Position numbers and translations under genes: made by a program. Under the pieces are notes generated by a model. It was not told the DNA's origin and ran no database searches. It saw only the letters and a program-made list of their open reading frames with translations. This document shows, in pieces, positions 7,603-40,894 of a stretch of DNA of 43,652 nt. The stretch spans positions 1 through 43,652 of the forward strand of contig JAYEGR010000049.1 of NCBI GenBank assembly GCA_034659175.1, read 5' to 3'. Numbering within the stretch: position 1 is the stretch's first letter; each line of letters opens with the position of its first letter. Source of the DNA: Thermodesulfobacteriota bacterium (GTDB taxonomy: Bacteria; Desulfobacterota; Desulfobulbia; Desulfobulbales; DAOVYS01).

Positions 7603-7756
7603 GTAAATATTCGGCAGCACTCCACAGGAAGGCGATCAGGCTGCCCAGCATACCTAAGTATAGCTGATCAGCCTGCTCAACCTCCCTGTGAAGCGCTGCC
7701 AAACATTTACAGTTTGGTAGTTTTAGCTATTTTCCGGCATCAAGCCGAATATTTAC
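7603..7756 (+). mobile_element. MITE-like element, family A, copy A1 (short-loop variant)
   Basis: 13-bp terminal inverted repeats GTAAATATTCGGC / GCCGAATATTTAC. Perfect 8-bp direct repeat TAAAACGT at 7595-7602 and 7757-7764. Long internal imperfect hairpin. Near-identical copies at 11784-11960 and 12804-13002. Confidence 0.85.
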
Positions 7757-7791
7757 TAAAACGTCTTGAAATATTCAATGGACAATGTTGG

Positions 7792-9321
7792 ATGAAAAAT
7801 ACTGAAGAGCGCAGGGATACCGAACTTCGCAAAACACGGGATGAGGTCAATCGGCTGGTCAAGAACTGGCGGGCTCTCTTGGACATCATGCCGGAGATGG
7901 TTTTTTTGATACGTGAAGATTATGTCATTGAGTACATGAATCCGTATGCCATCAGCGTGTTTGGTGATCTACGCGATAAATTCTGCTACGATGTGATGTG
8001 CCGGTGCAATTTGAAGAATAAGGAGGCTCAGGTCGCCTGCCCGTTCAAGACTACCTGGTCGGACAAGCATGAAAAGGCGCTATACGAGAAAAGGATCGGC
8101 GAGATTGATGTGGAATACAGTTCCGTGCCGTTTCAGGGATATTTGGACGACAAGCTTGTCATGGTGGTTATGAGGGATGTCACTGACAGGAAGCGGCATG
8201 AACAGGCATTAAAAAACTTTCACAACAATATTGAGGAGGTTCTTCAGCAGAAGATCAGTGAATTAAAGGAGAGTGAAAAGGTTCGGGCTCAACTGTCGCA
8301 GCAGGTACATTCTTTAAGAAATAAGTTAAAGATCGCAGACCAGACGGATGAAATGGTGGGTAACTGCCGGCAGATGCGTGAACTCCGTGAGATGGTGTAT
8401 CAAGTTGCTGATACTGATACCACTATCCTTATCAGCGGTGAAAGCGGCACTGGTAAGGAGCTGGTCGCAAATTTGGTACGGAACCACAGTTCCCGGCGTT
8501 ACAAGCCATTCCTGAAAGTAAACTGCAATGCCATTAATGATAATTTACTGGAAAGTGATCTGTTCGGGTATGAGAAAGGTGCGTTTACCGGCGCTTTTTC
8601 GAGGAAAAAGGGGAAATTCGAGGTCGTTGACAAGGGAACTATTTTTCTGGATGAGATTGGTGACATAAGTCCTAAGATGCAGTCGGCTTTGCTCAGGATT
8701 CTTCAGAACGGCGAGATTATCCGGGTGGGCGGCAATGAACCCATTACGGTAGACGTCAGGGTTATAGCCGCCACAAATGTTGACCTTGCAAGGGCGGTTC
8801 AAGATGGTAAATTCCGTCTTGATCTTTATTATCGGTTAAATATCATAAATATTGTCATTCCCCCCTTAAGAGAGAGGAAGGAGGATATACTCGACCTGAC
8901 TTCTCATTTTATTAAAGTCTACCGTAAGGCCTTTAAAAAGGAGATTGATTTTGTCCCTGATACAATAATTAACCGGTTACTTATGCATGACTGGCCGGGG
9001 AACATTCGAGAACTTGAAAATGTCACCCAGCGGGCTGTGTTGATGGCAAAAAACAACATGATCACGGAACATGATCTTGTATTTGATATCAGCCCGACCG
9101 CTGATTCCCAATCCAACTATCTCTATCAGATTGATGATAAGCTGGCTACGCTGTCATTAAAGGATGTGATCTCTGAGCTTGAACGTGATATAATAGTATT
9201 TTCCTTGAAAAAAAATAACGGAAATGTTCATCAGTCCGCTATCAGTCTCCAGATTGGAAAGACAGCCCTGTATGACAAGATGAAGCGTCACGACATTTCC
9301 GTCAAATCATTGAAGAAGTGA
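7792..9321 (+). CDS. sigma54-dependent transcriptional activator (PAS-like sensor, AAA+ domain, Fis-type HTH)
   Basis: Walker A GESGTGKE, sigma54-contact GAFTGA motif (EKGAFTGAF), ELRE/NIRELEN, C-terminal HTH. The ORF-track start at 7714 lies inside MITE A1, so I use the in-frame ATG at 7792 (MKNTEERR). The start is uncertain. Confidence 0.88.
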   Translation: MKNTEERRDTELRKTRDEVNRLVKNWRALLDIMPEMVFLIREDYVIEYMNPYAISVFGDLRDKFCYDVMCRCNLKNKEAQVACPFKTTWSDKHEKALYEKRIGEIDVEYSSVPFQGYLDDKLVMVVMRDVTDRKRHEQALKNFHNNIEEVLQQKISELKESEKVRAQLSQQVHSLRNKLKIADQTDEMVGNCRQMRELREMVYQVADTDTTILISGESGTGKELVANLVRNHSSRRYKPFLKVNCNAINDNLLESDLFGYEKGAFTGAFSRKKGKFEVVDKGTIFLDEIGDISPKMQSALLRILQNGEIIRVGGNEPITVDVRVIAATNVDLARAVQDGKFRLDLYYRLNIINIVIPPLRERKEDILDLTSHFIKVYRKAFKKEIDFVPDTIINRLLMHDWPGNIRELENVTQRAVLMAKNNMITEHDLVFDISPTADSQSNYLYQIDDKLATLSLKDVISELERDIIVFSLKKNNGNVHQSAISLQIGKTALYDKMKRHDISVKSLKK

Positions 9322-9444
9322 TAGAGGTACAATTTTTGCAGGCTAAAAAAGTGAAAGATTTGAATATATCCGACTCTCTTGCCGGATTTTCGGGAAAAGG
9401 GATAACGTTACATAATAATTTAATTTGGCTGCTTGTGGATTGTC

Positions 9445-11223: not shown

Positions 11224-11249
11224 TTATTGGGATAAAAAATCCTTATTTA
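11224..11249 (-). promoter_or_regulatory. possible sigma28 (FliA)-type promoter upstream of the FliL-like gene
   Basis: The minus strand reads TAAA-N14-CCCAATAA. The remembered consensus is TAAA-N15-GCCGATAA, so the -10 block matches 6 of 8 positions. Confidence 0.25.
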
Positions 11250-11280
11250 GTACCTTTAAAAAATTTCGGTTTATCTGGGT
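11249..11280 (-). promoter_or_regulatory. conserved 32-nt leader motif (copy 1) upstream of the FliL-like gene
   Basis: AGTACCTTTAAAAAATTTCGGTTTATCTGGGT matches 23377-23408 at 27 of 32 positions by manual alignment. Both copies lie upstream of FliL-family genes on the minus strand. Confidence 0.5.
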
Positions 11281-11316
11281 AAGCGCCATGGGGATATGCA
11301 CTCGGGTGGATACGGA

Positions 11317-11697
11317 TTAAGTCAATACCTTGTCGATTTTTTCTCCAAGAGTTTCAGCTGTGAACGGCTTGACAATGTACTGGCTGACCTTGGCCTTGAC
11401 GGCCAGGATGATGTTGTCCTGCTGTGCCTCCGCTGTCACCATAATGAACGGGGTGTCGGCCATTTCAGCATTGCCGCGTACATTTTTCAAGAGATCAAGG
11501 CCGGTCATCTTGGGCATGTTCCAGTCAGAGATGATCAGATCCACTTTTTCTTTCTCCAGAATTTCCAATGCCGTTGTGCCGTCATCAGCCTCGACGATGT
11601 TGTTGTAACCCAACTGTTTAAGGATATTCTTTACTATCCGGCGCATGGTGGCAAAATCGTCGACAACAAGAACTTTCATATTGGTGGTGTCTGCCAT
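11317..11697 (-). CDS. cheY: chemotaxis response regulator CheY
   Basis: 126 aa single receiver. VLVVDDFATMRR, phospho-acceptor context ISDWNMPKMTG, conserved K in YIVKPF. Confidence 0.93.
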   Translation of the reverse strand: MADTTNMKVLVVDDFATMRRIVKNILKQLGYNNIVEADDGTTALEILEKEKVDLIISDWNMPKMTGLDLLKNVRGNAEMADTPFIMVTAEAQQDNIILAVKAKVSQYIVKPFTAETLGEKIDKVLT

Positions 11698-11783: not shown

Positions 11784-11960
11784 ATGCCTATACGGCTTGA
11801 TGCCGGGAAATAGCTAACGCCACCAAATTTGAAATTGTAAATGTTTGGCAGCGCTTCACAGGGAGGTGAGCAGGCTGGTCAGCAGATAAGCGCAGACTTC
11901 GATACTTTGGTATGCTGGGCAGCCTGATCGCCTTCCTGTGGAGTGCTGCTGAATATTTAC
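11784..11960 (-). mobile_element. MITE-like element, family A, copy A2 (long-loop variant, degenerate left end)
   Basis: Reverse-complement match to A1 across the body. Intact right end GCTGAATATTTAC. The left end has decayed (ATGCCTATACGGC). T-rich 8-mers flank it (TTTTTTTG / TTTTTTTT). It carries the same ~19-nt apical insertion (AGATAAGCGCAGACTTCGA) as A3. Confidence 0.75.
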
Positions 11961-12010
11961 TTTTTTTTATTTTATCATAGCGGCCCATGGAAGTAAAGAT
12001 CTGGCCCGGC

Positions 12011-12793
12011 TTAAACGGTTAAGGCTTTTTTCAGTTTTGATCGAAGGCGGAACATGGCCTTGCTGTGCATTTGAGAGATACGGGACTCGGTATATCCCAG
12101 GATCCGGCCGATTTCCTTCATGGTGAGTTCTTCAAAATAATACAAAGAGACTGCGAGTTTTTCCTTTTCCGGCAGTTCCATGATCGCTTTGGCCACATGG
12201 TCGCGAATCTCGGAAAGACTGATCGCGGCAAACGGATCTTTGTCACTGTCGGTGAACGAATCCGTAATACCGGTATCCATGGTTCCCGGTGCCTTCTGAC
12301 GAAGAAATTCGATATCCATAAAGGTGACGGTTTTGGTCTCGTCAAGCAGCTTGTAAAATCCGTCAAGCGAGATGTCCATAAATTTGGCCGCTTCTTCATC
12401 GGTGGCGGGCCGGCCCAGTTTTTTTTCCAGGTTGGAATAGGTTTTTTCAAGGGCGGTTACCTTTCTCCGGATCGATCTGGGCATCCAGTCAAGGGAACGG
12501 AGTTCATCAAGCATTGCCCCTTTTATACGGAATTCAGCGTATGTCTTGAACTGAACATTTTTGGAAGTATCAAATTTATCTATTGCATCGATCAGACCGA
12601 TGATTCCGCTGCTGATCAGGTCGTCAATTGCAACGTGCGGCGGCAGTCTGGAGGTTAAACGGGCGGCAATATACTTGATCAACGGCGTGTAGTTTATGAT
12701 CAGGTCATTGCGCTTCTCCGCATCCAGTCGCCCGGACCGGCTGAAATAGGCCTGAGTGTAATCTTTTAATTTTGGGGATTGGTGTTTATTCAT
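12011..12793 (-). CDS. fliA: flagellar RNA polymerase sigma factor FliA (sigma28)
   Basis: 260 aa. Sigma70 region 2 (LISSGIIGLIDAIDKFD), region 3 and region 4 (LYYFEELTMKEIGRILGYTESRISQMH). Located after flhF-flhG. Confidence 0.93.
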   Translation of the reverse strand: MNKHQSPKLKDYTQAYFSRSGRLDAEKRNDLIINYTPLIKYIAARLTSRLPPHVAIDDLISSGIIGLIDAIDKFDTSKNVQFKTYAEFRIKGAMLDELRSLDWMPRSIRRKVTALEKTYSNLEKKLGRPATDEEAAKFMDISLDGFYKLLDETKTVTFMDIEFLRQKAPGTMDTGITDSFTDSDKDPFAAISLSEIRDHVAKAIMELPEKEKLAVSLYYFEELTMKEIGRILGYTESRISQMHSKAMFRLRSKLKKALTV

Positions 12794-12803
12794 GCCTGAC
12801 TTT

Positions 12804-13002
12804 GTAAATATTCGGCTTTATGCCGGAAAACAGCTAGAACCACCAAATTGTAAATGTTTGGCAGCGCTTCACAGGGAGGTGAGCAGGCTGATCAGCAGAT
12901 AAGCGCAGACTTCGATACTTTGGTATGCTGGGCAGCCTGATCGCCTTCCTGTGGAGTGCTGCCGAATATTTACCTTCCTGTGGAGTGTTGTCGAATATTT
13001 AC
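12804..13002 (-). mobile_element. MITE-like element, family A, copy A3 (long-loop variant with duplicated end)
   Basis: TIRs GTAAATATTCGGC / GCCGAATATTTAC. The last 29 nt are tandemly repeated (CTTCCTGTGGAGTGTTGTCGAATATTTAC). Perfect 8-bp direct repeat CTGACTTT at 12796-12803 and 13003-13010. Confidence 0.88.
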
Positions 13003-13008
13003 CTGACT

Positions 13009-13908
13009 TTATAGATTGAACAGCCCCTGCCAGAAAAATTTAATATTACCGTCCGCCTTGAGGTCCGGATCTTCCCGGCTGATCCGGTCCGAGAGTTTTT
13101 TGAATTTTTTGCTTGATGCTGAATCAGGGTATAACTCCACCACAAGGCGTTGTTTCTTAACTGCTAATAGTAATTTATTATCATAAGGAATAAATCCAAG
13201 AAAATCCAGGGAAAGTGTATTTAAAAAACGATCAGCCACCAGGCTTAACTGACGAAAAACCGCCAGAGCTTCTTTTTCTGAACGGACGAGGTTTATCAGT
13301 ATCCGGAATTTTTTAACGTCATGACGGGTGGACAGTACTTTGATCATTGCATAGGCATCTGTTAGAGATGTAGGCTCCGGAGACAAGAGGATGATGCGCT
13401 CCTGGGCCGCCAGAGTAAAATAGATCACGTTGTTGTTGATGCCGGCTGCAGTATCAATGAGCAGGATGTCGATTTTGCTCCCCAGAGACTCCATTTCACC
13501 AAGAAAGTAGAGTTTCTGACTTTCCGTCAGATTTGACATTTCCATTATCCCGGAACTGGCCGGAAGTATAAAAATTCCTCCAGGGCCTTCAACCAGGACA
13601 TCCGGCAGGGCCTTTTCGCCGATAAAGACATGATGCAGGTTGAATCTGGGCGTAAGACCAAGAAGGACATCGACATTTGCCAGGTTCAGGTCTGCGTCAA
13701 GGACAAGCACCTTTTTCCCTGCTTTACTGAGGGAATAGGCCAGATTCGTGACAACATTGGTCTTCCCGACGCCCCCCTTTCCGCTGGTTACGCAGATCAC
13801 CCTTGGCATGGAACCGCTTTCTGTCAGTTTATCATAAATAGTTGAACCCTGAACAGTTGCAAGCTGTGTTTGAGTCATCATCTTTTCCAATGTCTCTGCT
13901 TGGTTCAT
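13009..13908 (-). CDS. flhG: flagellar number regulator FlhG (MinD/ParA-type ATPase)
   Basis: Deviant Walker A SGKGGVGKTN, 299 aa, positioned directly after flhF. Confidence 0.9.
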   Translation of the reverse strand: MNQAETLEKMMTQTQLATVQGSTIYDKLTESGSMPRVICVTSGKGGVGKTNVVTNLAYSLSKAGKKVLVLDADLNLANVDVLLGLTPRFNLHHVFIGEKALPDVLVEGPGGIFILPASSGIMEMSNLTESQKLYFLGEMESLGSKIDILLIDTAAGINNNVIYFTLAAQERIILLSPEPTSLTDAYAMIKVLSTRHDVKKFRILINLVRSEKEALAVFRQLSLVADRFLNTLSLDFLGFIPYDNKLLLAVKKQRLVVELYPDSASSKKFKKLSDRISREDPDLKADGNIKFFWQGLFNL

Positions 13909-13938
13909 TCTGTTTCCTTTGATTTTAAATAGTTGTTT

Positions 13939-14054
13939 AGGTAGAAGGCCGAAGGTATAAGGTAGAAGGTTGAAGGTATAAGGGCAAACGTCTGTTAACC
14001 TTCAGCCTAAATCCCTTCAACCTTCTACCTTCTACCTAAAACCTTCAACCTAAA
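13939..14054. repeat. two inverted arrays of heptanucleotide repeats (AGGNNNA x7, 10-nt spacer, complementary ACCTNNN-type units x8)
   Basis: Read directly: AGGTAGA AGGCCGA AGGTATA AGGTAGA AGGTTGA AGGTATA AGGGCAA, then acgtctgtta, then ACCTTCA GCCTAAA TCCCTTCA ACCTTCT ACCTTCT ACCTAAA ACCTTCA ACCTAAA. The region fills the flhF-flhG intergenic space. Confidence 0.85.
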
Positions 14055-14062
14055 AATTTTCA

Positions 14063-15229
14063 TCATGAGGCCATGGCCGTGTTCCAGCCCTGTCCGAAGA
14101 GTTTGTTGATAAAGTCATACGAGGCCATTTGAAAGTCTTCCGGAACCCGTTGGCCCGTGCATACACACGAAACCGGCAGGCATGATGAAACAACCTGCTG
14201 ACAGAGTGCGGCATATGCCCTGGTTTCATCCAGTTTAGTCAGTATGATTCCATTTACTGAAAGCGGACTGTAAGCATTAGTCATACTGGCCAGATCCTCT
14301 TTTTTAGTAGTGGCGCTTATGACCAGGTATGGGTTAATGGAATTAAGAGGCTCAAACCAGCTTTCAAGTTCGGGAACGTGCCTGCTGTCATATGGACTTT
14401 TCCCTGCTGTATCGATTATGATCAGGTCTTTGTCACTGTGTTTTGCAACAGCTTTTACCAGGTCCTGTTTTCTTAAAACAATTTCGCATGGTAATTTCAT
14501 GATTTGTGAATAGGTTCGGAGTTGGTCCGTGGCGCCTATCCTGTAACAATCCATTGAAATAAGCGCCACTTTGCGTCTTTCCCGCAGACTGAACCATGCT
14601 GCAATTTTGGCGACGGTTGTGGTCTTGCCCACACCTGTTGCCCCAACAAGGCATATTAACGTTTGCGGTTTTTCCTTTACCTGATGCGTCAAGGGAATGA
14701 CCTGAACCTGTTTGATGAGTTCATTTCGCCACCTTGTCACTTCTTTTGGGTCTGGTTTATCGGGTATTGTTTCGGTCGGTACGTGGGGAATCTGTTTTTT
14801 GTTTTCAGGGGGAGATGTTGCTTTTGAAGTAATATGCGTATTTAAAAGAGCGGAGAAACGTTTCTTAAGATCCAGGGCCTCCAAACTTGCAGGCTGTTGT
14901 TTTATTATTGGGATCTCGCCGGGAATCAATATGGCCTTTTCAGGAGTTAAGGAGTTTGATGCCTTTTTGATAATATCATTTTTAGTCCGCTTTTTCGGTG
15001 CGTAACCGTATTCCGTAACAGGAATCTCAACCGGTTGCCGCTCCTTGCCGTCATAATCTATGGCAGCCACAACTTCGACAAGGGACGAGTTGTGATTTTT
15101 CTTTTTACCGTTACGTCTTGATGGGGAAATGTTCCTCGTTGTGAGGATAAGAGCGTCATTTCCCATTTCATTTTTGATCATGGCAAGGGCCGTCCTGGTG
15201 TCCGGGGCCTCAAATCTTTTGATCCTCAT
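14063..15229 (-). CDS. flhF: flagellar biosynthesis GTPase FlhF (SRP family)
   Basis: 388 aa. G1 LVGATGVGKTTT, DTAG, TKLDE motifs. Lies between flhA and flhG. Confidence 0.92.
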   Translation of the reverse strand: MRIKRFEAPDTRTALAMIKNEMGNDALILTTRNISPSRRNGKKKNHNSSLVEVVAAIDYDGKERQPVEIPVTEYGYAPKKRTKNDIIKKASNSLTPEKAILIPGEIPIIKQQPASLEALDLKKRFSALLNTHITSKATSPPENKKQIPHVPTETIPDKPDPKEVTRWRNELIKQVQVIPLTHQVKEKPQTLICLVGATGVGKTTTVAKIAAWFSLRERRKVALISMDCYRIGATDQLRTYSQIMKLPCEIVLRKQDLVKAVAKHSDKDLIIIDTAGKSPYDSRHVPELESWFEPLNSINPYLVISATTKKEDLASMTNAYSPLSVNGIILTKLDETRAYAALCQQVVSSCLPVSCVCTGQRVPEDFQMASYDFINKLFGQGWNTAMAS

Positions 15230-15292
15230 AGTCCAGTACTCTATGATAATTGTTTTTGTGATTTTTTGATTGAGTATTTAAATCCCAACAAG

Positions 15293-15330
15293 CCTTTGAA
15301 TCTCTGAACCCTGAACCTCTTAACCTTTAT
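15293..15330. repeat. short degenerate GAACC(T)-type heptamer-like repeat in the flhA-flhF spacer
   Basis: CCTTTGA ATCTCTGAACC CTGAACC TCTTAACC TTTATC. Same flavour as the arrays at 13939, 34242 and 43507. Confidence 0.4.
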
Positions 15331-17436
15331 CTACCCCTTCGGGTTAACTTCAATGGTGCCCAGTGACCGGATTTTCGCCTGTGTTGTCAGCTCGCTGTGC
15401 GAGATTACCGTGACCTGTGGCATGAACTGTTTAATAAAGCGCTGCAGATGCATGCGTATGACAGGCGAACAGATCACAAGGGGCGGATAGCCCTCATTGG
15501 ATATTTTTTCAACCGATGTCCCGATTGAGTCAAGAATTTGTGTTGCCAGATTCGGTTCAATGGACAGGTAGGCGCCATGATCGCTTTTTCGGATTGATTC
15601 ACGGATAAGATCCTCGACTTTGGTGGCCAGTGTCAGTACGGAGAGGTTTCCTTCCTCGTCAATAAAGGCGCTGACAATTGATCTGGCCAGTTTCTGCCGC
15701 ACGTACTCGGTCAGGGTGTCCGGGTCCTTACTTATATATGCAAAATCAGCCAGTGTCTCGCAGATTGTGAGAAGATCGCGGATCGAGACCCGCTCCCGTA
15801 AAAGATTCTGGAGAACTTTCTGCACTCCGCCCAGGCTAAGCAGGTTCGGAACCAGTTCTTCAATCACCTTTGGATGGGTTTTGGCAAGATTATCAAGGAG
15901 TTTCTGTGTGTCCTGACGACCGAGCAGTTCATCTGCATGTGCCCTGAGCAGCTCCGTCATGTGAGTGGCCACAACGGTTGACGGATCGACCACGGTATAG
16001 CCGGCCACCTGGGCCTCATCCTTCTTGTCTTCAGTAATCCATATGGCTGGAAGCCCGAATGCCGGCTCTTTTGTCGGAATTCCATCAATTTTGCGTTTAG
16101 CTGCTCCGGAATCCATGGCAAGGAGATATTCCATCATCACATCTCCGCGGGTGATTTCGATTCCCTTGAGCAAAAGGACGTATTCATCCGGTTTGATCTG
16201 GAGATTGTCACGTACGTGAAGGGGCGGAATGATCAGACCCATTTCCATTGCAAACTGCCTTCTAATGGCCCTGATTCGTTCAAGGAGGTCACCTTCCTTG
16301 GTTTCGTCGACCAATGGAATAAGAGCGTAGCCCACCTCGAGTTGCAGTGTGTCCAGAGGCAGAAGGCTCTCAACCGTTTCCGGCGCTCCAGGGGGAGGTT
16401 CGGTTTCTTTTATTTCTTCCTCCTTTTCTTCTGTTTTCCTCTTGGCTTCATTTTGAAAGGCGAAGAATGCCAGGCCTCCCATTAGCGTTGCCAGTATGAG
16501 AAACGGGACGTGAGGAAGGCCGGGTATCAATCCGAACAGGAAGATAATCCCTGATGTAACGGCCAGGGCCTGCGGCTGCAACCCGAACTGTTTGGCGAAT
16601 TCCGATCCCATGCTCTTGTCCGAGGCTGCGCGGCTCACGATTATACCGGCCGAGGTGGAGATGATAAGGGCCGGAATCTGGGATACCAGGCCGTCTCCAA
16701 TAGTCAGGAGGGTGTAAGTCTCGGCTGCCGTGCCGAATGGCATGCCCTGTTTTAAGACACCGATTGCCCATCCGCCCATAATATTGATCACAATAATTAC
16801 TATGGAGGCAATTGCCTCGCCGCGTACAAATTTGGCTGCACCGTCCATGGCCCCGTAAAATTCGGCCTGCCTGGAGATCTCCATCCTGCGATTTTTCGCG
16901 CCCTGCTCATCGATCAGTCCGGCATTCAAGTCCGCGTCAATGGCCATCTGCTTGCCCGGCATTGCATCAAGAGTGAAGCGGGCCGCCACTTCCGCGATTC
17001 GTCCCGAACCTTTTGTGATGACAATAAAATTGATCAGCACAAGAATCGCGAAAATGATAATGCCCACACCGTAGTCTCCTCCTATGACAAAATTGCCGAA
17101 TGAATTGATCACCTGGCCCACCGCGCCTTTACCTTCATGTCCGTGCAGGAGGATCAGCCGAGTGGACGCGATGTTCAAAGACAGCCTGAACAGTGTCGAG
17201 ATCAGGAGCACTGAAGGAAATGAGGAGAAATCAAGTGGCCGGGTGTTGTACATGGACATGAGCAGGATGACCAGTCCTATAGTGATGTTCAGAGAAAGAA
17301 GCAGGTCCAGGATAACTGTGGGCAGTGGAATAATCATGATTATGAGTATTCCGACAACACCGACAGCCACAATGAGACTCGTGGACTCCATGTTAAAGGT
17401 ACTCACTCCTGGTATTGTCCCAGTATTGTCAGCCAT
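15331..17436 (-). CDS. flhA: flagellar type III export protein FlhA
   Basis: 701 aa. N-terminal polytopic TM region, the FHIPEP-like segment, and a large cytoplasmic C-domain. Confidence 0.96.
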   Translation of the reverse strand: MADNTGTIPGVSTFNMESTSLIVAVGVVGILIIMIIPLPTVILDLLLSLNITIGLVILLMSMYNTRPLDFSSFPSVLLISTLFRLSLNIASTRLILLHGHEGKGAVGQVINSFGNFVIGGDYGVGIIIFAILVLINFIVITKGSGRIAEVAARFTLDAMPGKQMAIDADLNAGLIDEQGAKNRRMEISRQAEFYGAMDGAAKFVRGEAIASIVIIVINIMGGWAIGVLKQGMPFGTAAETYTLLTIGDGLVSQIPALIISTSAGIIVSRAASDKSMGSEFAKQFGLQPQALAVTSGIIFLFGLIPGLPHVPFLILATLMGGLAFFAFQNEAKRKTEEKEEEIKETEPPPGAPETVESLLPLDTLQLEVGYALIPLVDETKEGDLLERIRAIRRQFAMEMGLIIPPLHVRDNLQIKPDEYVLLLKGIEITRGDVMMEYLLAMDSGAAKRKIDGIPTKEPAFGLPAIWITEDKKDEAQVAGYTVVDPSTVVATHMTELLRAHADELLGRQDTQKLLDNLAKTHPKVIEELVPNLLSLGGVQKVLQNLLRERVSIRDLLTICETLADFAYISKDPDTLTEYVRQKLARSIVSAFIDEEGNLSVLTLATKVEDLIRESIRKSDHGAYLSIEPNLATQILDSIGTSVEKISNEGYPPLVICSPVIRMHLQRFIKQFMPQVTVISHSELTTQAKIRSLGTIEVNPKG

Positions 17437-17537
17437 CTTTTTGCTTCCGGTTGTTTTGGTGGGAACAGCCCACCCTGCAAAATTCTTTTATGTTATTCGT
17501 TTTTCTACCGTAACGGTCTGAAATTACGACTTGCCTT

Positions 17538-17669
17538 GTAAACGTTCACAGGTGCTGTAGCTGTGCGTGATCAGGGCAATCAGCTATAGTCAACCTATGC
17601 TGGTTGCCCTGATCACGCGCAGGTAAGCGAGCCTGCGAGACTCCGGATGCAGTGCCTGTGGACGTTTGC
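17538..17669 (+). mobile_element. palindromic MITE-like element, family B, copy B1
   Basis: Outer arms GTAAACGTTCACAGGTGC / GCAGTGCCTGTGGACGTTTGC. Inner arms GTGCGTGATCAGGGC / GCCCTGATCACGCGC around a CTATAGTCAACCTATG centre. Asymmetric module GCAGGTAAGCGAGCCTGCGAGACTCCGG. Related copies at 33456-33587 and 40745-40894. Confidence 0.8.
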
Positions 17670-17671
17670 AA

Positions 17672-18742
17672 TCATGCGCTTTTTTGTTTGAGGCTGTAGA
17701 CATATGCAAGCACTTCCGCCACTGCCTCGAAAAGGTTTTCGGGTATGGAATCGTCTATGTCCACGGTCTTGAAAAGGGCCTGGGCCAGAGGCATGTCTTC
17801 CACGATCGGAATGGAGTGCTCGGCAGCGACTTCTCTAATACGTCTTGCGATAACACCTGCGCCTTTGGCAACCACCACAGGCGCACTCATTGTAAGGCTG
17901 TCATACCGAAGTGCGACTGCCAGTCGGACCGGGTTTGTAATAATTACATCTGCGGACGGCACTTCCTCCATCATTCTTCTTCTGGCCATTTGCATCTGGA
18001 TCGACCTGATTCGTCCTTTAACCTGTGGGTCACCCTCTGTCATCTTGGCTTCTTCCTTGACCTCCTGCTTGGTCATTTTCATTTTGTTCGTGAACTGCCA
18101 TTTCTGAAACGCATAATCCAAGGCTGCAAGGATAGCTATGATAATTGCGGCCTTTAAGAAAATCCAGAAAGAGGTCTTTACTACGAATACAAAAATCGGA
18201 AAAGGCTCCTGATCCATAAGAGGCAGGAGCGAGGGCATGGATTTTTTTACTTCGTAAAAAGCCACTGCGCCGATAAATATTATTTTTAAAATGGATTTGA
18301 TCAAATGGGCAAGCGTCTGCATGGAGAATTTGTTTTGAACGCCCTTGATCGGGTCTATTTTTTTGAGGTCGGGCTTAATCTTTTCCCCTGTGAAAATTAT
18401 CCCGATCTGAGCGTAATTGGCCGCAAGCGCGGTCACCAGGACCACGGCCATAACGGGCGCCACGATCATGGTGGAATAAAGCATGCTTTCGCGGGTTATT
18501 GTGACCATGTTGTCCTTGATGATTTCAATGGTATGAAGATTCCCGAGATAATGCCTTAGCAGCATGTATAAACGCTCCAGCATGAAGTCGCCTAAAAAAT
18601 ACAAGGTCAAAAGGCCGGCAAGAAGCACTGCGGCAGACGGGATTTCCATACTTTTTGCCACATCGCCTTTTTTCCTGGCGTCGGCAAGGCGCCGCGCGGT
18701 AGGTTGTTCGGTTTTTTCCTGTCCGGTACTCTCTTCAGCCAT
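17672..18742 (-). CDS. flhB: flagellar type III export protein FlhB
   Basis: 356 aa. N-terminal EKTEQPT, four TM helices, and the NPVRL variant of the NPTH autocleavage region (ITNPVRLAVAL). Confidence 0.95.
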   Translation of the reverse strand: MAEESTGQEKTEQPTARRLADARKKGDVAKSMEIPSAAVLLAGLLTLYFLGDFMLERLYMLLRHYLGNLHTIEIIKDNMVTITRESMLYSTMIVAPVMAVVLVTALAANYAQIGIIFTGEKIKPDLKKIDPIKGVQNKFSMQTLAHLIKSILKIIFIGAVAFYEVKKSMPSLLPLMDQEPFPIFVFVVKTSFWIFLKAAIIIAILAALDYAFQKWQFTNKMKMTKQEVKEEAKMTEGDPQVKGRIRSIQMQMARRRMMEEVPSADVIITNPVRLAVALRYDSLTMSAPVVVAKGAGVIARRIREVAAEHSIPIVEDMPLAQALFKTVDIDDSIPENLFEAVAEVLAYVYSLKQKSA

Positions 18743-30848: not shown

Positions 30849-30966
30849 AAAATTATCTGTTGTCCATTAAAAAACATTGGTAACCGGTCAGAAAGGGGTC
30901 AGTAATTTAGCGATGTGGACGAACCCTAACCCAGATAAACTGGAATTCTTTAAAGGTCCTGGATAA

Positions 30967-31021
30967 GTACCTTAGAAAATATTTTCTGCCAGAAACGCGC
31001 AGAAAATATTTTCTAAGGTAC
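30967..31021. promoter_or_regulatory. perfect 23-bp-arm palindrome carrying two AGAAAATATTTTCT sites
   Basis: GTACCTTAGAAAATATTTTCTGC (30967-30989), a 9-nt spacer, then GCAGAAAATATTTTCTAAGGTAC (30999-31021). Each arm contains the self-complementary 14-mer AGAAAATATTTTCT. Confidence 0.7.
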
Positions 31022-31542
31022 TAAGCGCTAACAGTTGTTTAAGTGGATTACCCTCAGTAATCCGCGACAAACCAGAAAAATTAACCTTGCTCCTCCTGAT
31101 TTGAAACAGGCTGATTTTTTTGATAAAAATCGACCACGAGAAATACCGGAGAGCCAATATGATTGCTGCAATACTCAGTTGCACCGGTATATCAAAGGGT
31201 TGAGCAATTATTTATGCCATACTTTTTCATTTTTCAAAAGAAATTTTTTTTAACCGTTCAGAGGGGCACCCTTTGAACGGTTACGTTCAAGCTGTCCCGA
31301 GTCTGTCGGCGTAAAGAAAGCTCTTGGCAAGCGCCCTTAGTATTGATATTGTGCAATACAAAAAAGGTAATCGTTCCCCTGCGTCTCATTAATTCCTGCA
31401 TTAGTTTCTGTTTGCTTACAGCATTTAAATTTCAAAAATTGATAATTGATCTCAAACAGGAAGCCCTAACCCGGAGGGCGCTATGTTCTCCGGGTTAGGC
31501 GAATAGTCGGTTTAAGTTTGTATTTTTAAAGGAGCAAGGAAC

Positions 31543-33459
31543 ATGGCAAAAACAGTAACAGAAAAAATATTAAAAAATCACCTGGTTGAGGGTCGTATGG
31601 AAAAAGGTGAAGAGATCGGCATCCGCATTGATCAGACCCTGACCCAGGATGCCACAGGCACTATGGCCTATCTTGAATTTGAAGCAATCTCCATTCCAAG
31701 AGTTCAGACCGAGCTGTCGGTCTCTTATGTGGACCATAATCTGGTTCAGTCTGATTTCAGGAATGGTGACGACCATCGGTTCCTTCAATCCGTTGCCCGG
31801 AAATATGGTCTCTACTTTTCTCCCCCCGGGAACGGCATTTCCCACCAGATCCACCTGGAAAGATTCGGCAGGCCCGGCAGGACTCTCTTAGGTTCCGACA
31901 GTCATACTCCCACAGGCGGAGGTCTCGGCATGCTTGCAATAGGCGCCGGAGGGCTCGATGTGGCCATGGCAATGGCCGGAAAGCCATTCTTCATGATAAT
32001 GCCGAAGGTCTATGGCGTTAAACTGACCGGCCGATTGCCGGAATGGGTGTCAGCCCGGGACGTGCTTCTCGAACTGCTCAGGCAACTCTCCGTCAAGGGC
32101 GGTGTAGGATATGTCATGGAATATTTCGGCCCAGGCGTTAAAGAGTTATCTGTAACAGACCGGGCGGCCATAACCAACTTCGGTGCTGAACTGGGTGCCA
32201 CCACTTCGGTGTTTCCGTCGGACGAGAACACTAAAAAATTTCTGGAAAGTCAGGGACGGGGCGGCCTGTGGGAAGAGCTTGCAGCTGATGAAGGCGCCTG
32301 TTATGACAAGGTGATTGAGATTGATATGTCCACACTGGAACCGCTTATCGCCTGTCCCTCATCTCCGGATAACGTGGTAAAGGTCCGGGAAGTGGCCGGT
32401 AAGCCCGTGTTTCAGGTGCTGGTGGGCTCATGCTCCAATTCATCGTTGCGTGATCTGATGCTTGTCTCCAAGGCGCTGGATGGTAAACAGGTACACAATG
32501 ACGTGAGTTTCGAAATCAACCCGGGCAGCCGCCAGGTACTGGAAAACCTTACGGCCCAGGGATACATGCTCTCTCTGATCAAGGCCGGCGCCCGCATCCA
32601 TCAGGCAGGCTGCCTGGGATGTATTGGAATGGGACAGGCGCCGGCCACGGATACAATTTCACTAAGGACCTTTCCCCGGAATTTTCCCGGCCGCAGCGGG
32701 ACCAAAGACGACCGGGTTTATTTATGCAGTCCTGAAACCGCGGTTGCGTCGGCGCTCAAGGGGTGCATCACGGATCCGCGTGATCTGGGTGTATACCCTG
32801 AATTCAGTCTGCCTGAGAAGTATCTGCCCGGTGATCAACGGATCGAACCGCCGAAATCAGAGGGTGAAAGTACCATGATCATCCGTGGACCGAATATAGC
32901 GTCCTTCCCTGAGTTTGATCCTGTCCCCGAAACATGGGAAGGCACAGTGCTGTTAAAGACAGCGGATAATATTACTACTGATCACATCATGCCGGCAGGC
33001 GCTCAGATACTTCCGCTCAGGAGCAATATTCCAGCTATCAGTGAATTTGTATTTAACTCCATTGACCGGGAATTTGTTCAGCGGGCAAAGAGAGCAAGCA
33101 GCGGTATGGTTGTGGGAGGTGAGAACTATGGTCAGGGATCATCCAGGGAGCATGCCGCACTGGCACCGCGTTATCTTGGAGTGCGCGTAAAACTGGTCAA
33201 GAGCTTTGCACGCATTCATAAGGCAAATCTGATCAATTTCGGCATCCTGCCGTTTACCTTTACATCGGCTGAAGACTACGACATAATCGAGCAGGGTGCA
33301 AAGGCGGTTATTCCGGATCTAAGAAAAAATCTTGAATCCGGGGCAGAGGTCTTTGTGTTGGATGTAGCCGGCAATAAAATTAAAATCAGCCTGGATATCT
33401 CCACACGGCATCGTGAGATACTACTGGCAGGCGGTCTCCTGAACTGGGCAAGACAGTAA
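31543..33459 (+). CDS. aconitate hydratase (short ~640-aa aconitase family member)
   Basis: 638 aa. Aconitase catalytic and swivel domains with Fe-S Cys contexts (VGSCSNSS, GCLGCIGMG). GGAGCAAGG RBS region upstream. Confidence 0.9.
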   Translation: MAKTVTEKILKNHLVEGRMEKGEEIGIRIDQTLTQDATGTMAYLEFEAISIPRVQTELSVSYVDHNLVQSDFRNGDDHRFLQSVARKYGLYFSPPGNGISHQIHLERFGRPGRTLLGSDSHTPTGGGLGMLAIGAGGLDVAMAMAGKPFFMIMPKVYGVKLTGRLPEWVSARDVLLELLRQLSVKGGVGYVMEYFGPGVKELSVTDRAAITNFGAELGATTSVFPSDENTKKFLESQGRGGLWEELAADEGACYDKVIEIDMSTLEPLIACPSSPDNVVKVREVAGKPVFQVLVGSCSNSSLRDLMLVSKALDGKQVHNDVSFEINPGSRQVLENLTAQGYMLSLIKAGARIHQAGCLGCIGMGQAPATDTISLRTFPRNFPGRSGTKDDRVYLCSPETAVASALKGCITDPRDLGVYPEFSLPEKYLPGDQRIEPPKSEGESTMIIRGPNIASFPEFDPVPETWEGTVLLKTADNITTDHIMPAGAQILPLRSNIPAISEFVFNSIDREFVQRAKRASSGMVVGGENYGQGSSREHAALAPRYLGVRVKLVKSFARIHKANLINFGILPFTFTSAEDYDIIEQGAKAVIPDLRKNLESGAEVFVLDVAGNKIKISLDISTRHREILLAGGLLNWARQ

Positions 33460-33587
33460 AGGGCCACAGTCGGCGCATCCGGAGTCTCGCAGGCTCGCTT
33501 ACCTGCACGTGATCAGGGCGACCGGTATAGGTTACTATAACCGGGTCGCCCTGATCACGCACACCTGCACCGACTGTGGCCCTTTAC
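33456..33587 (-). mobile_element. palindromic MITE-like element, family B, copy B2
   Basis: Perfect 18-bp termini GTAAAGGGCCACAGTCGG / CCGACTGTGGCCCTTTAC. Inner GTGATCAGGGCGACC...GGTCGCCCTGATCAC hairpin. The CCGGAGTCTCGCAGGCTCGCTTACCTGC module is inverted relative to B1. The aconitase TAA stop (33457-33459) lies inside the terminus. Confidence 0.85.
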
Positions 33588-33658
33588 CTCTGAACCCGGC
33601 GGGTATAATTTTTTGTACTTTTTTATCTCTGGTTTCCTTGTCGATCTGATAAGTAACT

Positions 33659-33822
33659 TTAGGGCTCGCACAAAAATAACTTCACATTTTCATGCGCCGA
33701 TCCATCCCGCATGGCTGCGTTGCTCGTCGGTTAAATAGCCCTGCTATTCGCCCTTCTCGCGCCTTGCCATGCGGGCGCCTCAACACCTGAAAATATAAAT
33801 TTATTTTTGGGCGAACCCTTAA
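33659..33822. mobile_element. third palindromic repeat element (family E) with ~55-nt imperfect inverted termini
   Basis: The left end TTAGGGCTCGCACAAAAATAACTTCACATTTTCA...CCCGCATGGC pairs with the right end GCCATGCGGG...TGAAAATATAAATTTATTTTTGGGCGAACCCTTAA. A 20-nt copy of the terminus (TTAGGGCTCGCTCAAAAATA) occurs at 11156-11175. Confidence 0.6.
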
Positions 33823-34033
33823 ATCAAGGGGATAAATTTGGTTTATAGTGTGTACAGAAAAAATTGGTCGTGTATCCGGCTGATTTTGCCTGGAAAGGTG
33901 ATAGGTTGGGCAGAAATTGATTTGTACAGTAAAAAAAATTGTATTTTAGGTGGTGTGGAGAGAGGGGTTATTGTCTTTGGTAATTTGTTGGTATTACTGG
34001 AATTTTTCTGGATTTCGAGCTTTTTTAGGGGTT

Positions 34034-34049
34034 TGGCACGCAGTTTGCA
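34034..34049 (+). promoter_or_regulatory. sigma54 (-24/-12) promoter
   Basis: TGGCAC-GCAGT-TTGCA, an exact match to TGGCAC-N5-TTGCW. Two TGTACAG+A-tract boxes lie upstream at 33851-33857 and 33923-33929. Confidence 0.7.
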
Positions 34050-34059
34050 ATATTACATG

Positions 34060-34134
34060 TTCAAAGAGAACAAAACTCTTTTCTCCTATTTTTTGTAAAA
34101 AAGCCGACTTTGCGCCCCCAAGGTCGGCTTTTTT
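34060..34134 (+). ncRNA. candidate ~75-nt sigma54-dependent small RNA (or terminated leader of the DUF362 gene)
   Basis: Predicted TSS ~12 nt after the -12 GC. 5' hairpin AAAGAG-aacaaaa-CTCTTT (34063-34081). Single-stranded U/C-rich UCUCCUAUUUUUU. Then an intrinsic terminator. No convincing ORF. Confidence 0.4.
34097..34134 (+). terminator. intrinsic (rho-independent) terminator, potentially bidirectional
   Basis: AAAAAA-GCCGACUUU / loop GCGCCCCC / AAGGUCGGC-UUUUUU. About 9 bp of stem, flanked by an A-tract and a U-tract. Confidence 0.75.
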
Positions 34135-34241
34135 ATGTTCAGGGCAGAATTTCAGGCATTCCCATGCTGGTTGTAACCATCCATTCTTAATTTCCGGCAG
34201 GAGCATTACTCGTTTGGTCAGAGCTAAAAAAATAGCAAAGA

Positions 34242-34277
34242 GATTAACCTTGATTAACCTTTGAACCTTGAACCTCA
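34242..34277. repeat. short AACCT/GAACCT direct repeats
   Basis: GATTAACCT TGATTAACCT TTGAACCT TGAACCT, immediately upstream of the DUF362 gene. Confidence 0.45.
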
Positions 34278-34290
34278 GCGGTTACGTTTT

Positions 34291-35244
34291 ATGGAAATCA
34301 AGGACAATAAAGTAGCCATACTCCGTTGCCCCACGTATGAGCGAGATTCGCTTAAAATGGCAGTGGACGGGATTTGTCGAGCAATAGATTTTCAGATTAC
34401 GCCTGGCTGCGGGGTGCTTTTAAAACCTAATCTTGTTACGGCAAGGAGCCCGGACGGCCTGGCATGCACTAATCCATGTTTTGTGGCGGCAGTTGCTGAA
34501 TGGTTTCTGGATCATGGGGCACGTGTCAGTGTGGGGGATTCACCCGCTTTCGGGAGTAGTAAAAAGGTGATGAAGGCATGCGGCCATGAGAATGCCCTTA
34601 AGAAACTGCCTGTAAACCTGGTTGATCTTTCCTTACCCGAACGTGTGGACCTGCCTTGCGGCGATTCCATCGGGATCTCAAGGACAGCGCTTGAATCCGA
34701 TCTTTTAATAAACCTGCCAAGGATCAAGGCGCACAGTCAGCTTCTTGTCACAATGGCAGTGAAGAACTATTTCGGGACAGTGGTCGGCGGCAGAAAAGCA
34801 TGGCTTCATCTGAAATATGGTGATGAAACAGACAGGTTCGGGCAGGTACTTGTGGATCTTCTTGCAGTACTTCCCGAAGGTATTACACTTGTGGACGCCG
34901 TCACCGCAGTCCATGGGGAAAGTCATATCACGGGAAAATCCTATCATCTCGGACTGGCGGCCGGTTCGAGGAATCCTGTTGCCATAGATACGTCGTTTCT
35001 GTCTATTCTCGGGATTGATGCGGACCAAAGTCTGCTCTGGAAGGAGTGCTCAAAACAGGGGCTTTTAGGCAGCAGGGTTCAGGATATCATCTATCCCCTG
35101 CTTTCTCCGGAAGAGGTCAAAGTAGATGATTTTCAAGTACGTTCACAATTAAACCCCATAAGCTTCCGGCCGAAAAGATTAATCATCGGCGGGTTAAAAC
35201 GGCTTGCAGCCAGGATCCTGCCCGGCATTAATAGAAAGTTATGA
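34291..35244 (+). CDS. DUF362 domain protein
   Basis: VLLKPNLV...ACTNPCFVAAVAEWFLDHGARVSVGDSP... matches my memory of DUF362. ATG at 34291 (MEIKDNK) preferred to the TTG at 34261. Confidence 0.7.
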   Translation: MEIKDNKVAILRCPTYERDSLKMAVDGICRAIDFQITPGCGVLLKPNLVTARSPDGLACTNPCFVAAVAEWFLDHGARVSVGDSPAFGSSKKVMKACGHENALKKLPVNLVDLSLPERVDLPCGDSIGISRTALESDLLINLPRIKAHSQLLVTMAVKNYFGTVVGGRKAWLHLKYGDETDRFGQVLVDLLAVLPEGITLVDAVTAVHGESHITGKSYHLGLAAGSRNPVAIDTSFLSILGIDADQSLLWKECSKQGLLGSRVQDIIYPLLSPEEVKVDDFQVRSQLNPISFRPKRLIIGGLKRLAARILPGINRKL

Positions 35245-37818: not shown

Positions 37819-38085
37819 AATTCCTTTTTTTTAGTACCTTAGAAAATATTATCGGAAAGTACTTATACCATGATTGCAGTTACATTTTTCGTAATTTTAT
37901 TCCGGATTTACGGAAAAATAGAGATGTTTTGATTATGTTAGTATGTGGCGAATATTAGCCTAACAAGTTGCAATTGCGGAAACAAATCAAGCGCATAGGG
38001 AAAATGGAATGAATTTTGCAGTTTAACTGTATCAATGGACGATTTTTATGTATTGTGAATAAAATAGCGACAACAATTCTGATTA

Positions 38086-38589: not shown

Positions 38590-38603
38590 TTTGTGCTCTT
38601 ACA

Positions 38604-40688
38604 CTAATCCTGCGCCGTGGTGATCGTGTACATCTTTGAAAAATCACCGATTTTCAGGAAAAGACGGGATATGGCGGTCAGCAGGGAAAGCCTGTTGTTC
38701 CGGATTTCCGGATTTTCCGTCATTACCATCACATCGTCAAAAAAAGCATCCACAGGCTCTTTCATCTTCAGGATGGTTTCCAGGGCCTGATTGTATTTTT
38801 TCTTCTCAAAAAGCGGATCGCTCTCATTCGCTACTGCAAGATAGGTTTCATACAGGGATTGTTCCGCGGTTTCCGTCAGCAGGTCTTTGTTTACGTTGGT
38901 ATTGCCATGATCTTTGATTATGTTCATCACCCGTTTAAAGGAACCGGCCAAAAGCGCAAATGCAGGCTGTGAGCTGATTGCCACCAGGGCCTCTATCCTC
39001 TTGCGGCAGTCAACCACGTCGTCAAACGAGATCGAGGTCACGGCCTCCACTGCCTCAGCAGGCACACCCTCGGAAATCAGGTCATTTACAAAGCGTCCTT
39101 TGATGAATTCAAGGATGTTTTTTTGAGCTGTTTTTTTGTCTTCGCTAAGTTTGTTTTCAAAAAGATCAAGCGCCTTTTTAACAAATTCAGACAGGGAAAT
39201 TGAAAAGGATTTATCCTGGATGATGTGGAGTAAGCCCAGGGAGAGTCTTCTCAGTCCGTATGGGTCCGTGGCCCCGGTGGGAGCCTGCCCGATGCCGAAA
39301 CAGCCTGCGATGGAATCCAGCCTGTCCGCCATACTCACAATGGTCCCGGGTATTCCATCAGGCAGTTCGCTTCCTGCCCTGATTGGACGATAATGTTCCA
39401 GGATTCCGTTTGCAACTTCTACTTTTTCTCCATCCAGGATGGCATAGTCCCGGCCCATAACCCCCTGCAGTGAAGGAAACTCAGTGACCATGGCGGTAAG
39501 GAGATCCGACTTTGAAAGTTCGGCTGTCCGTTTAACGGTCTCAGTGAGATCCGGCGCGAATTTTTCAGCCATCATTCCGGCCAGTTTTGTTACACGTTCG
39601 GTTTTTTCCAGAAGCGTGCCGAGCTTGGCCTGAAAGATTACCCCGGAAAGACTTGCCACTCTGTCAGCCAGGGGCGTCTTTTTATCTTCCCGGAAAAAGA
39701 ACAACGCATCTTCAAGCCTTGCCCTTAGAACCCGCTGATGACCCTCGGCCCCTAGTTTTGCGTCTTTGACTTTTGTGTTGTTTACAGCTATAAAATTGGG
39801 AAGCAGGTTACCGTTGTCATCGATTACGGCAAAATATTTCTGATGCTCTCGCATTGCCGTGATCAGGACATCGCTTGGCAGGTCCAGGAATCGTTTTTCA
39901 AAAATGCCGCATATGGCATGCGGAGTCTCAACCAACTGCGTTACGATCTCGATCAGTTCGTCATCCGGAAGTATGGTTCCTCCGGCCTCCATGGCTGCCC
40001 GGTTGATTTCTTTTACCAGAGTAATTCTACGTTCGGAAATATCGGCCAGGACATGATTGTTGCGCAATTTGTTGAGATAGTCAGAGAAATCATTAACCTC
40101 AAACGGGTCAGGCGCCATGAAACGATGGCCTTTTGTCATGTTGCCGCTTGAAATATTTTCAATCTGAAACCGGATCACGTTCCCGCCATAGAGTGCAAGG
40201 AGCCATTGAATCGGACGTGCAAAAACGGCGCTGCCGTCACCCCAGCGCATTGATTTTGGAAATGGCAGTTCCCGGATCAGCTCTATAAGCAATTCGGGCA
40301 GGATATTTATTGTCTTCTTGCCCTTTTTTTCACTTACCAGCATCAGGTATTCACCTTTGGGCGTGGTGATTATTTTCAAGTCATCCACCAAAGCGCCCCT
40401 TGATTTAGCAAATCCAAGGGCTGCCTTGGTCGGTTTCCCGTCTGCGTCGTAAGCTGCCTTTTTGGGCGGCCCGGTGATTTCTTCTACGCTGTCGGGCTGA
40501 TTGTCAGCCAGGTCGGAAACAGATATGGTCAGGCGTCTCGGAGTGGCAACGGTCTTGATTTCTCCGAACTCAAGAGAAAAGCCTGACAGCTTTCTTGTCA
40601 GGATGACTCTCATGTTCTCAAGCGACGGAATGATAAAACCCGCGGGCAACTCTTCGGTTCCAATTTCAAACAGCAGTTCGTGGACCAT
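38604..40688 (-). CDS. glyS: glycine--tRNA ligase beta subunit
   Basis: Canonical N-terminus MVHELLFEIGTEELP. The ORF-track start at 40787 extends into repeat B3, so I use the ATG at 40688. ~695 aa. Confidence 0.93.
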   Translation of the reverse strand: MVHELLFEIGTEELPAGFIIPSLENMRVILTRKLSGFSLEFGEIKTVATPRRLTISVSDLADNQPDSVEEITGPPKKAAYDADGKPTKAALGFAKSRGALVDDLKIITTPKGEYLMLVSEKKGKKTINILPELLIELIRELPFPKSMRWGDGSAVFARPIQWLLALYGGNVIRFQIENISSGNMTKGHRFMAPDPFEVNDFSDYLNKLRNNHVLADISERRITLVKEINRAAMEAGGTILPDDELIEIVTQLVETPHAICGIFEKRFLDLPSDVLITAMREHQKYFAVIDDNGNLLPNFIAVNNTKVKDAKLGAEGHQRVLRARLEDALFFFREDKKTPLADRVASLSGVIFQAKLGTLLEKTERVTKLAGMMAEKFAPDLTETVKRTAELSKSDLLTAMVTEFPSLQGVMGRDYAILDGEKVEVANGILEHYRPIRAGSELPDGIPGTIVSMADRLDSIAGCFGIGQAPTGATDPYGLRRLSLGLLHIIQDKSFSISLSEFVKKALDLFENKLSEDKKTAQKNILEFIKGRFVNDLISEGVPAEAVEAVTSISFDDVVDCRKRIEALVAISSQPAFALLAGSFKRVMNIIKDHGNTNVNKDLLTETAEQSLYETYLAVANESDPLFEKKKYNQALETILKMKEPVDAFFDDVMVMTENPEIRNNRLSLLTAISRLFLKIGDFSKMYTITTAQD

Positions 40689-40744
40689 TATGTTCCTTTT
40701 TATTTTTCTGATTATAACGGTTTGGGGCAGGAAAGCCTTATCAT

Positions 40745-40894
40745 GTAATCGTTCACAGGTGCCCCAGATGTGCACCCTGAAGGGCATAAACTCCAGCAGG
40801 CCGGCGAACTATAGTAAACCTATGTGAGTCGGACTGATCGCGTGCAGGTAAGCGAGACTGCGAGACTCCGGGTGGGGTGCCTGTGAACGATTCC
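40745..40894 (+). mobile_element. palindromic MITE-like element, family B, copy B3 (degenerate inner arm)
   Basis: Termini GTAATCGTTCACAGGTGCCCC / GGGGTGCCTGTGAACGATTCC. Central CTATAGTAAACCTATG. Module GCAGGTAAGCGAGACTGCGAGACTCCGG in the same orientation as B1. Confidence 0.8.

Follow-up and report, generated by a model that had tools for sequence, protein, structure and literature searches.

Related GTAA-ended miniature transposable elements of families A and B at gene ends in a Thermodesulfobacteriota contig

Insertion sequences of the IS66 family carry inverted repeats such as GTAAGCGTCCGG and GTAACCGTCCGG (PMC12888890), and 8-bp target duplications are usual for members of this family (PMC3916326). 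Among small palindromic repeats, ERIC elements exert an orientation-dependent effect on upstream mRNA via ribosome-induced refolding, and the hairpins of Correia/NEMIS elements are cleaved by RNase III (PMC2229807). We compared these systems with six repeat copies, A1 to A3 and B1 to B3, located in a 43,652-nt contig of a Thermodesulfobacteriota bacterium, an uncultured relative of sulfate reducers from marine sediment (assembly GCA_034659175.1, contig JAYEGR010000049.1, positions 1 to 43,652; the whole stretch is referred to as the window). In all likelihood, A and B are related families of MITEs (miniature transposable elements with inverted repeats), that is, non-autonomous DNA transposons that were most probably moved in trans by a DDE transposase of the IS66-family type. 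As such, they are a known kind of element, their unusual parts being a conserved A·C/G·U asymmetry in the stem and a nested 24-nt module. The window copies are typical of a stop-hugging, left-end-first class in which orientation and placement are linked; the pattern is reproducible, and it is not true of all copies.

The IS66 assignment draws on the termini and the length of the target duplication only, no transposase having been found. All ends begin with 5'-GTAA (GTAAAT..., GTAAACG... or GTAATCG...), with A units running from GTAAATATTCGG to CCGAATATTTAC and B repeats reading GTAA(A/T)CGTTCACAGG, and both the window elements and the IS66 repeats follow the pattern GTAA-N-CGT(C/T)C and are associated with 8-bp target duplications. 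Unlike IS66 members, the window elements lack a transposase gene, measure 105–200 nt and contain a long internal palindrome with an asymmetric tail. The terminal inverted repeats (26–30 nt in A, at least 15 nt in B) are conserved over more than 80 loci, and the units are multi-copy with no gene inside. Among the 40 A copies for which both ends were available, the flanking 8-bp duplication matched at 8/8 positions in 14, at 7/8 in nine and at 6/8 in two, such that 25/40 reached at least 6/8; the duplicated targets are A/T-rich. Within the window, where copies were delimited by repeat search and direct reading, A1 (7603–7756, plus strand) is bordered by the perfect duplication TAAAACGT at 7595–7602 and 7757–7764, and A3 (12804–13002, minus strand) by the perfect duplication CTGACTTT at 12796–12803 and 13003–13010. 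These features also bear on the proposal that the repeats belong to the REP/BIME type (REPINs) and owe their spread to a RAYT transposase of the IS200/IS605-like kind, which would fit their palindromic, extragenic and mosaic make-up and their position near gene ends. REPs are 20–40 nt long, have a GTAG or CGTC head and lack a target duplication (PMC3733652), whereas the present units combine a length of 105–200 nt with 26–30-nt terminal inverted repeats, GTAA ends and 8-bp duplications. In view of unit size and duplications we rejected the REP/RAYT reading, to which we give next to no credence.

Comparison with other small repeats yields a similar mixture of shared and distinct traits. ERIC (IRU) elements and the window units are both intergenic, MITE-like palindromes (~127 nt in ERIC) that are co-transcribed with their neighbours and often lie at gene ends; they differ in host phylum and are not known to share sequence similarity, and the resemblance is functional only. 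The target duplication of ERIC is TA, compared to 8 bp for the window elements. Correia/NEMIS elements of Neisseria likewise have long terminal inverted repeats that form mRNA hairpins, occur as length variants with internal inserts, fuse to open reading frames (ORFs) and provide stop codons. They differ in termini, host and target, which is TA, and RNase III cleavage has been demonstrated for them. BOX elements of S. pneumoniae and BIME mosaics of E. coli share with the window repeats a modular make-up, in which short units vary in presence or copy number; in contrast to these, the window modules are nested in transposon-like palindromes with target duplications, and one 24-nt module occurs in several unrelated families.

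The window copies are mobile, as reflected by empty sites in close relatives. We judged presence and absence from joints in metagenome contigs of close relatives and from two orthologous loci, L016 and L002. The A1 empty site appeared as a joint of 7598 to 7778 in four DNA runs, the A3 site as a joint of 12794 to 13009 in a related strain, and the sites of B1 and B3 as joints of 17436 to 17677 and of 40707 to 40890, respectively, in related strains. For B2, the joint of 33453 to 33602 came from a relative carrying a natural TAG where B2 gives G|TAA, and a TAG insertion was seen in a second comparison as well. No joint spanning A2 was present among the relatives' contigs, and this copy was judged from its degraded right end only. 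In agreement with the joints, L016, which is 97% identical over flhA–flhB, lacks B1 and has its native spacer directly after the flhB stop, and L002, which is 92–94% identical over glyS–folE2, lacks B3, its ortholog ending in ...EGPE followed by the stop. The window in turn has the intact empty site CTATGATAA (15241–15249) of an A copy found in L016. Nesting likewise speaks for mobility, with A found inside B and another element inside A tails. Because the window copies are missing from closely related strains, they represent recent insertions, not conserved regulatory parts.

The copy number of the elements is high. In four metagenomes, element depth was ~10–240 times that of the flanks, with A1 and A3 at ~100–240, B1 at 55–110 and the degraded A2 at 10–40; five of the six copies fell within ~55–240. 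A scan of one genome per species returned 81 loci matching the A repeat in at least eight metagenome-assembled genomes (MAGs), assigned to Thermodesulfobacteriota, 'Deltaproteobacteria', Desulfobulbaceae and related sediment MAGs, with many of the loci situated at contig ends. Public runs containing the window were cold-seep and marine-sediment metagenomes. About half of the A-bearing loci (L004–L080, JAIWHJ01 contigs, for example L016) came from a MAG labelled 'Promethearchaeota archaeon JL_US_07_7'; as contig L016 is 97% identical to the window over flhA–flhB, this MAG is contaminated with, or largely consists of, bacterial contigs of an organism closely related to that of the window.

When aligned, 27 full-length A copies, drawn both from the window and from other genomes, revealed a single architecture. 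Each unit consists of a long imperfect palindrome, built from 26–30-nt inverted repeats and an inner stem, an unpaired tail of 28–47 nt whose last 12 nt repeat the terminus, and optional nested mini-insertions. From left to right, A comprises the left inverted repeat GTAAATATTCGGCAGCACTCCACAGG, the inner stem GATCAGGCTG...CAGCCTGATC, the inner right repeat CCTGTGAAGCGCTGCCAAACATTTAC and a tail of ~46 nt with terminal CCGAATATTTAC; optional inserts are a 17–19-nt loop module, CGAAGTCTGCGCTTATCTG, which A2 and A3 possess and A1 lacks, and a 27-nt module, CCCCGCAGGAAGTGCCCTTGGGGTG, that many copies carry in the right arm. A1 is a full-length family-A MITE with its core palindrome at 7603–7710 and its tail at 7711–7756. 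A2 (~11789–11960, minus strand) has a degraded right (tail) end and a 19-nt loop mini-module at 11883–11901, and A3 has a partly duplicated left end (29 nt, 12974–13002) and a loop mini-module at 12896–12914. B follows the same plan, with a module of 24–27 nt in its left arm and the core GATCAGG..CCAGCATA..TATAGCTGAT in common with A. B1 (17510–17669, minus strand) has its core at 17538–17669, a short tail at 17510–17537 and the nested module at 17619–17646; B2 (33456–33587, plus strand) is a family-B core with the module at 33479–33506 and a tail remnant, CTCTGAAC, just 3' of it; B3 (40714–40893, minus strand) has its core at 40745–40893, a degenerate tail at 40714–40744, the module at 40844–40871 and a second mini-module, GGAGTTTATGCCCTTCAGGG.

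Families A and B are related, as an initial annotation of this DNA had proposed. After removal of the nested 24-nt module, their alignment scored z=6.6 when both pointed the same way and z=5.1 when reversed, the common pieces being GTAAA..CACAGG..GATCAGG..CCAGCATA..ATAGCTGAT..TTTAC. The core strings quoted in that annotation each match the window exactly and only once (A at 7634–7675 on the plus strand, B at 17569–17614 on the minus strand; chance expectation 0 for either). The A core had been said to align with the reverse complement of the B core; the relatedness stands, but the quoted strings align directly as written, which pairs A on the plus strand with B1 on the minus strand. The description of A as a B-type unit with a 47-nt extension also proved apt, given that B-type copies elsewhere possess an equivalent tail of ~45 nt with terminal CTGAACGGTTAC, which is shortened in B1 and B3 and left as a mere remnant in B2.

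The 24–27-nt module of the B copies, CGGAGTCTCGCAGGCTCGCTTACC(TGC), is near-invariant. It constitutes a nested insertion in the B left arm; module-free B-type copies exist. It recurs in several unrelated repeat families of marine-sediment metagenomes (loci L082–L201; at least 120 loci) and as tandem arrays of the 24-nt unit (L116, L170, L193). An apparent bias in its orientation relative to genes (38:21 downstream, 18:35 upstream) was dismissed as a geometric artefact, since the module lies near one end of its host element and tandem contexts gave 12:11.

To describe placement beyond the window, we compiled a census in other MAGs and metagenomes, comprising ~76 additional copies of A and ~22 of the B type, with A copies located by a hidden Markov model and genes in the loci called by a codon-usage-scored ORF picker. 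An enrichment near stop codons, which the initial annotation had anticipated, is pronounced: 31/76 A copies have an end within -8 to +10 nt of a facing stop, compared to 4.9% of intergenic positions (p ~5e-21). The bias is polar. A natural stop at -1 to +10 nt was found for 17/72 left ends and 0/43 right ends (Fisher p 0.0002), whereas a stop at +11 to +30 nt was found for 1/72 left and 8/43 right ends (Fisher p 0.0016), the right-end cases lying mostly 14–20 nt from the stop. ORFs ending in the element's own G|TAA were seen at 10/72 left and 4/43 right ends, a difference that is not significant. For B-type copies, nine left ends versus one right end lay within 25 nt of a stop. Orientation as such is mixed, with 17 co-oriented versus 13 anti-oriented A copies in tandem gene contexts outside the window (binomial p ~0.6) and ~5 versus 3 among B-type copies, and the folE2–glyS junction of L002, from another species, carries an anti-oriented A copy with the duplication CCTTTTGT ~35 nt from the B3 site. 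The earlier generalization that every mRNA would carry the same strand of the element is thus refuted, and co-orientation as a general trend is not supported. Nonetheless, the stop-hugging copies are almost all left-end-first, which equals co-oriented, and the six window copies therefore display a real pattern.

Within the window, each of the six copies points the same way as the genes around it, and all but A2 sit on a stop codon. These placements had been noted at the outset and stand as described for A1, A3, B1 and B2. Neighbouring genes were identified with NCBIfam and Pfam. The left end of A1 lies 8 nt 3' of the stop (7592–7594) of ugd (6287–7594, plus strand), and a sigma-54 activator gene (7714–9321, plus strand) follows. 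From the inner repeat end into the tail of A1 (7706–7733) extends a weak sigma-70-like match that faces outward, TTTACA-16-TATTTT; it is conserved in the A consensus and, judged by sequence, could promote or influence expression of the gene downstream. The left end of A2 at 11960 is 50 nt past the stop (12011–12013) of fliA (12011–12793, minus strand), or 45 nt by the nhmmer boundary; as the true neighbour downstream of A2 is a gene for a CheY-like receiver (11317–11697, minus strand), its context is a tandem minus-strand one. A3 fills the flhG–fliA junction, its duplication overlapping the stop (13009–13011) of flhG (13009–13908, minus strand). B1 begins 2 nt 3' of the stop (17672–17674) of flhB (17672–18742, minus strand), upstream of flhA (15331–17436, minus strand). 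The aconitase gene (31543–33459, plus strand) ends in the TAA of the terminal GTAA of B2 (33457–33459; G|TAA). B3 inserted at the stop codon of an upstream ORF and destroyed the natural stop, which added 46 codons running through B3 to a TGA at 40753–40755; glyS (38604–40787, minus strand) is the other neighbour. The extended ORF belongs to a folE2-like gene upstream of B3 that is split into two overlapping ORFs (41235–41630 and 40753–41268), suggesting a frameshift besides the extension.

Given that many copies lie in operon junctions, they are transcribed within mRNAs, and folding of their RNA predicts highly stable hairpins (z-scores between -8 and -14). The two strands are not equivalent. 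The A1 core folds with -54.7 kcal/mol on the gene-sense strand versus -79.1 on the opposite strand, B1 with -68.3 versus -89.1 and B2 with -89.1 versus -96.3. In the A consensus stem, 42 of 48 pairs are Watson-Crick and each of the other six reads A·C in the sense direction, equivalent to G·U on the opposite strand, with no sense G·U; compensatory double changes occur in three A stem pairs. In B-type copies, the antisense strand is more stable in 24 of 25 cases, with 46 versus 137 G·U pairs in minimum-energy folds, and other module-bearing repeat families lean in the same direction in 75 of 95. This asymmetry is largely inherited, reflecting ~7 independent lineages from few master copies; the orientation of module-less symmetric copies may itself derive from the asymmetry, and a G+T composition skew contributes, as the trend in the other families indicates. 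The usual transcription- or replication-linked C-to-T bias on the coding strand would have the opposite sign, which makes some strand-specific constraint likely; constraints of this kind, acting on the hairpin once transcribed, may lie behind both the polarity and the A·C/G·U asymmetry.

One interpretation of the asymmetry is that the functional strand is antisense to the flanking genes, either as a hairpin RNA with a transcript of its own or as an intermediate of single-stranded DNA, specific to one strand, that tolerates G·T wobble. The exclusively A·C sense mismatches of the A consensus, the better antisense folds of the B-type and other module families and, by inference from knowledge of mutation asymmetry, the sign of the C-to-T bias would all agree with it. 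On the other hand, the asymmetry comes mostly from those few master copies, symmetric copies may owe their assigned orientation to the asymmetry itself, and the G+T skew contributes to the signal; moreover, no antisense promoter was identified, and the 8-bp duplications favour a DDE mechanism acting on double-stranded DNA. We therefore consider an antisense function very doubtful.

A second interpretation, put forward in the initial annotation, is that selection keeps the elements because they act at the RNA level within the mRNA of their neighbours, as a 3' stabiliser, processing site or terminator, to which a ribosome-coupled switch at the stop may be added. By analogy with ERIC or Correia elements, an RNA-level effect is plausible, as both the orientation-dependent mRNA effects of the former and the RNase III processing of the latter are documented (PMC2229807). 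Extreme polar stop-hugging, the stability of the hairpins and their strand-asymmetric pairing speak in its favour, as do a T6 run right after the hairpin in 4 of 27 full-length A copies and metatranscriptome contigs that span the aconitase 3' end into the left arm of B2, these contigs being unstranded and possibly due to DNA carry-over. Sequences of the element families are over-represented in metatranscriptome libraries, with the same qualification as to strand and carry-over. Against such a role, the window copies are absent from close relatives in which the genes are intact, orientation is mixed and even reversed for the A copy near the B3 site in a related species, and the mRNA carries the weaker-pairing strand. 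A terminator and promoter scan yielded no terminator-like site at A1–A3 or B1, where the stem bases are A/U-rich, which speaks against the terminator role in particular. Being MITEs with target duplications that are missing from relatives, the elements can owe their placement to target choice plus purifying selection; the initial annotation had not recognised them as transposons. Overall, selection for an RNA-level role appears possible, though on the unlikely side.

The course of events under the MITE reading can be sketched as follows. Insertion leads to the duplication of 8 bp in an A/T-rich target, and the insertions that survive are concentrated at gene boundaries, chiefly at stop codons, which the GTAA terminus is able to provide or take the place of. 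In the left-end-first orientation, a hairpin weakened by A·C mismatches would start inside the stretch covered by the ribosome as it terminates and could be opened by it, which would make it tolerated or useful at the stop, whereas the perfect, antisense-type hairpin would be held away from the stop by the tail.

Several observations weigh against a plain IS66-type MITE. Clean 8-bp duplications were not found at the B copies of the window, and B1 has on either side only a degenerate copy of the 3' end of flhB. No transposase-sized ORF within a 0.9–4 kb unit with matching ends was detected in 970 kb of related loci, and plasmids contained neither sequences similar to the elements nor an autonomous partner. 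A symmetric DDE transpososome offers no obvious account of the left-end-only abutment on natural stops, and no asymmetric target motif that would explain the polarity was found in the duplications of the A copies. Likewise, the arm-to-arm differences are all transitions in one direction, exceeding what a plain DNA transposon predicts. Apart from these points, the sequence 3' of some A copies, tried as a candidate autonomous partner, proved to belong to a further MITE lodged within the tail and to no transposase. Searching the whole window against Rfam returned no family at the gathering threshold and, around B2, only chance miRNA-like matches at E<=1, and a literature string search with the repeat and module sequences retrieved no paper. 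Processes beyond ordinary MITE biology strike us as rather improbable. They would comprise polar stop-anchored insertion or retention, with the element as a ribosome-coupled RNA switch that preserves or modulates the coupling of adjacent genes after an insertion of 150–200 nt, and a 24–27-nt module that acts as an undescribed ultra-small mobile or templated unit. The IS66-type MITE reading retains our preference.

The window contains further repeats. A third MITE-like repeat, with ends TAGGGCTCGCACAAAAATAAC... and ...TTATTTTTGGGCGAACCCTTA, lies 70 nt downstream of B2 at 33657–33821; no repeat is more abundant in the metagenomes than this one, which occurs there at ~600–2000 times single-copy depth. 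It is very abundant in metatranscriptome contigs, too, and has an empty site in a relative (joint of 33656 to 33818). A fourth family, with the motifs AGTACCTTAGAAAATATTTTCTGC and TTTATCTGGGTTAG, is represented at 30926–31024, 11242–11283, 23377–23408 and 37831–37853, and occurs elsewhere (L017, L021, L046, L002) as a ~150-nt element nested at TTAG in A-copy tails. At 34156–34290, 135 nt are skipped by relatives in three metagenomes (joint of 34155 to 34291, with TACCTTA instead); a further small insertion may have occurred here, where the ORFs 33950–34264 and 34261–35244 meet. In addition, spacers of the flagellar cluster hold heptamer arrays of the CCTTCAA, CCTTCTA and CTGAACC types (13936–14065, 43500–43586, 15290–15320), which are longer in L016 (2900–3100), and metagenome depth is raised at 15064–15447 of the window.

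In sum, the A and B elements are abundant in Desulfobacterota-like genomes of cold seeps and marine sediments, where they break assemblies and reside inside flagellar and housekeeping operons. They rewrite C-termini, with 46 extra codons in one gene, and supply stop codons, and should thus matter for the annotation and binning of MAGs. The 24-nt module common to several families merits separate study. If RNA-level selection were indeed behind the polar anchoring and the mismatch pattern, the elements would provide a natural system, in a new phylum, for how operons tolerate or use large structured inserts at gene junctions.

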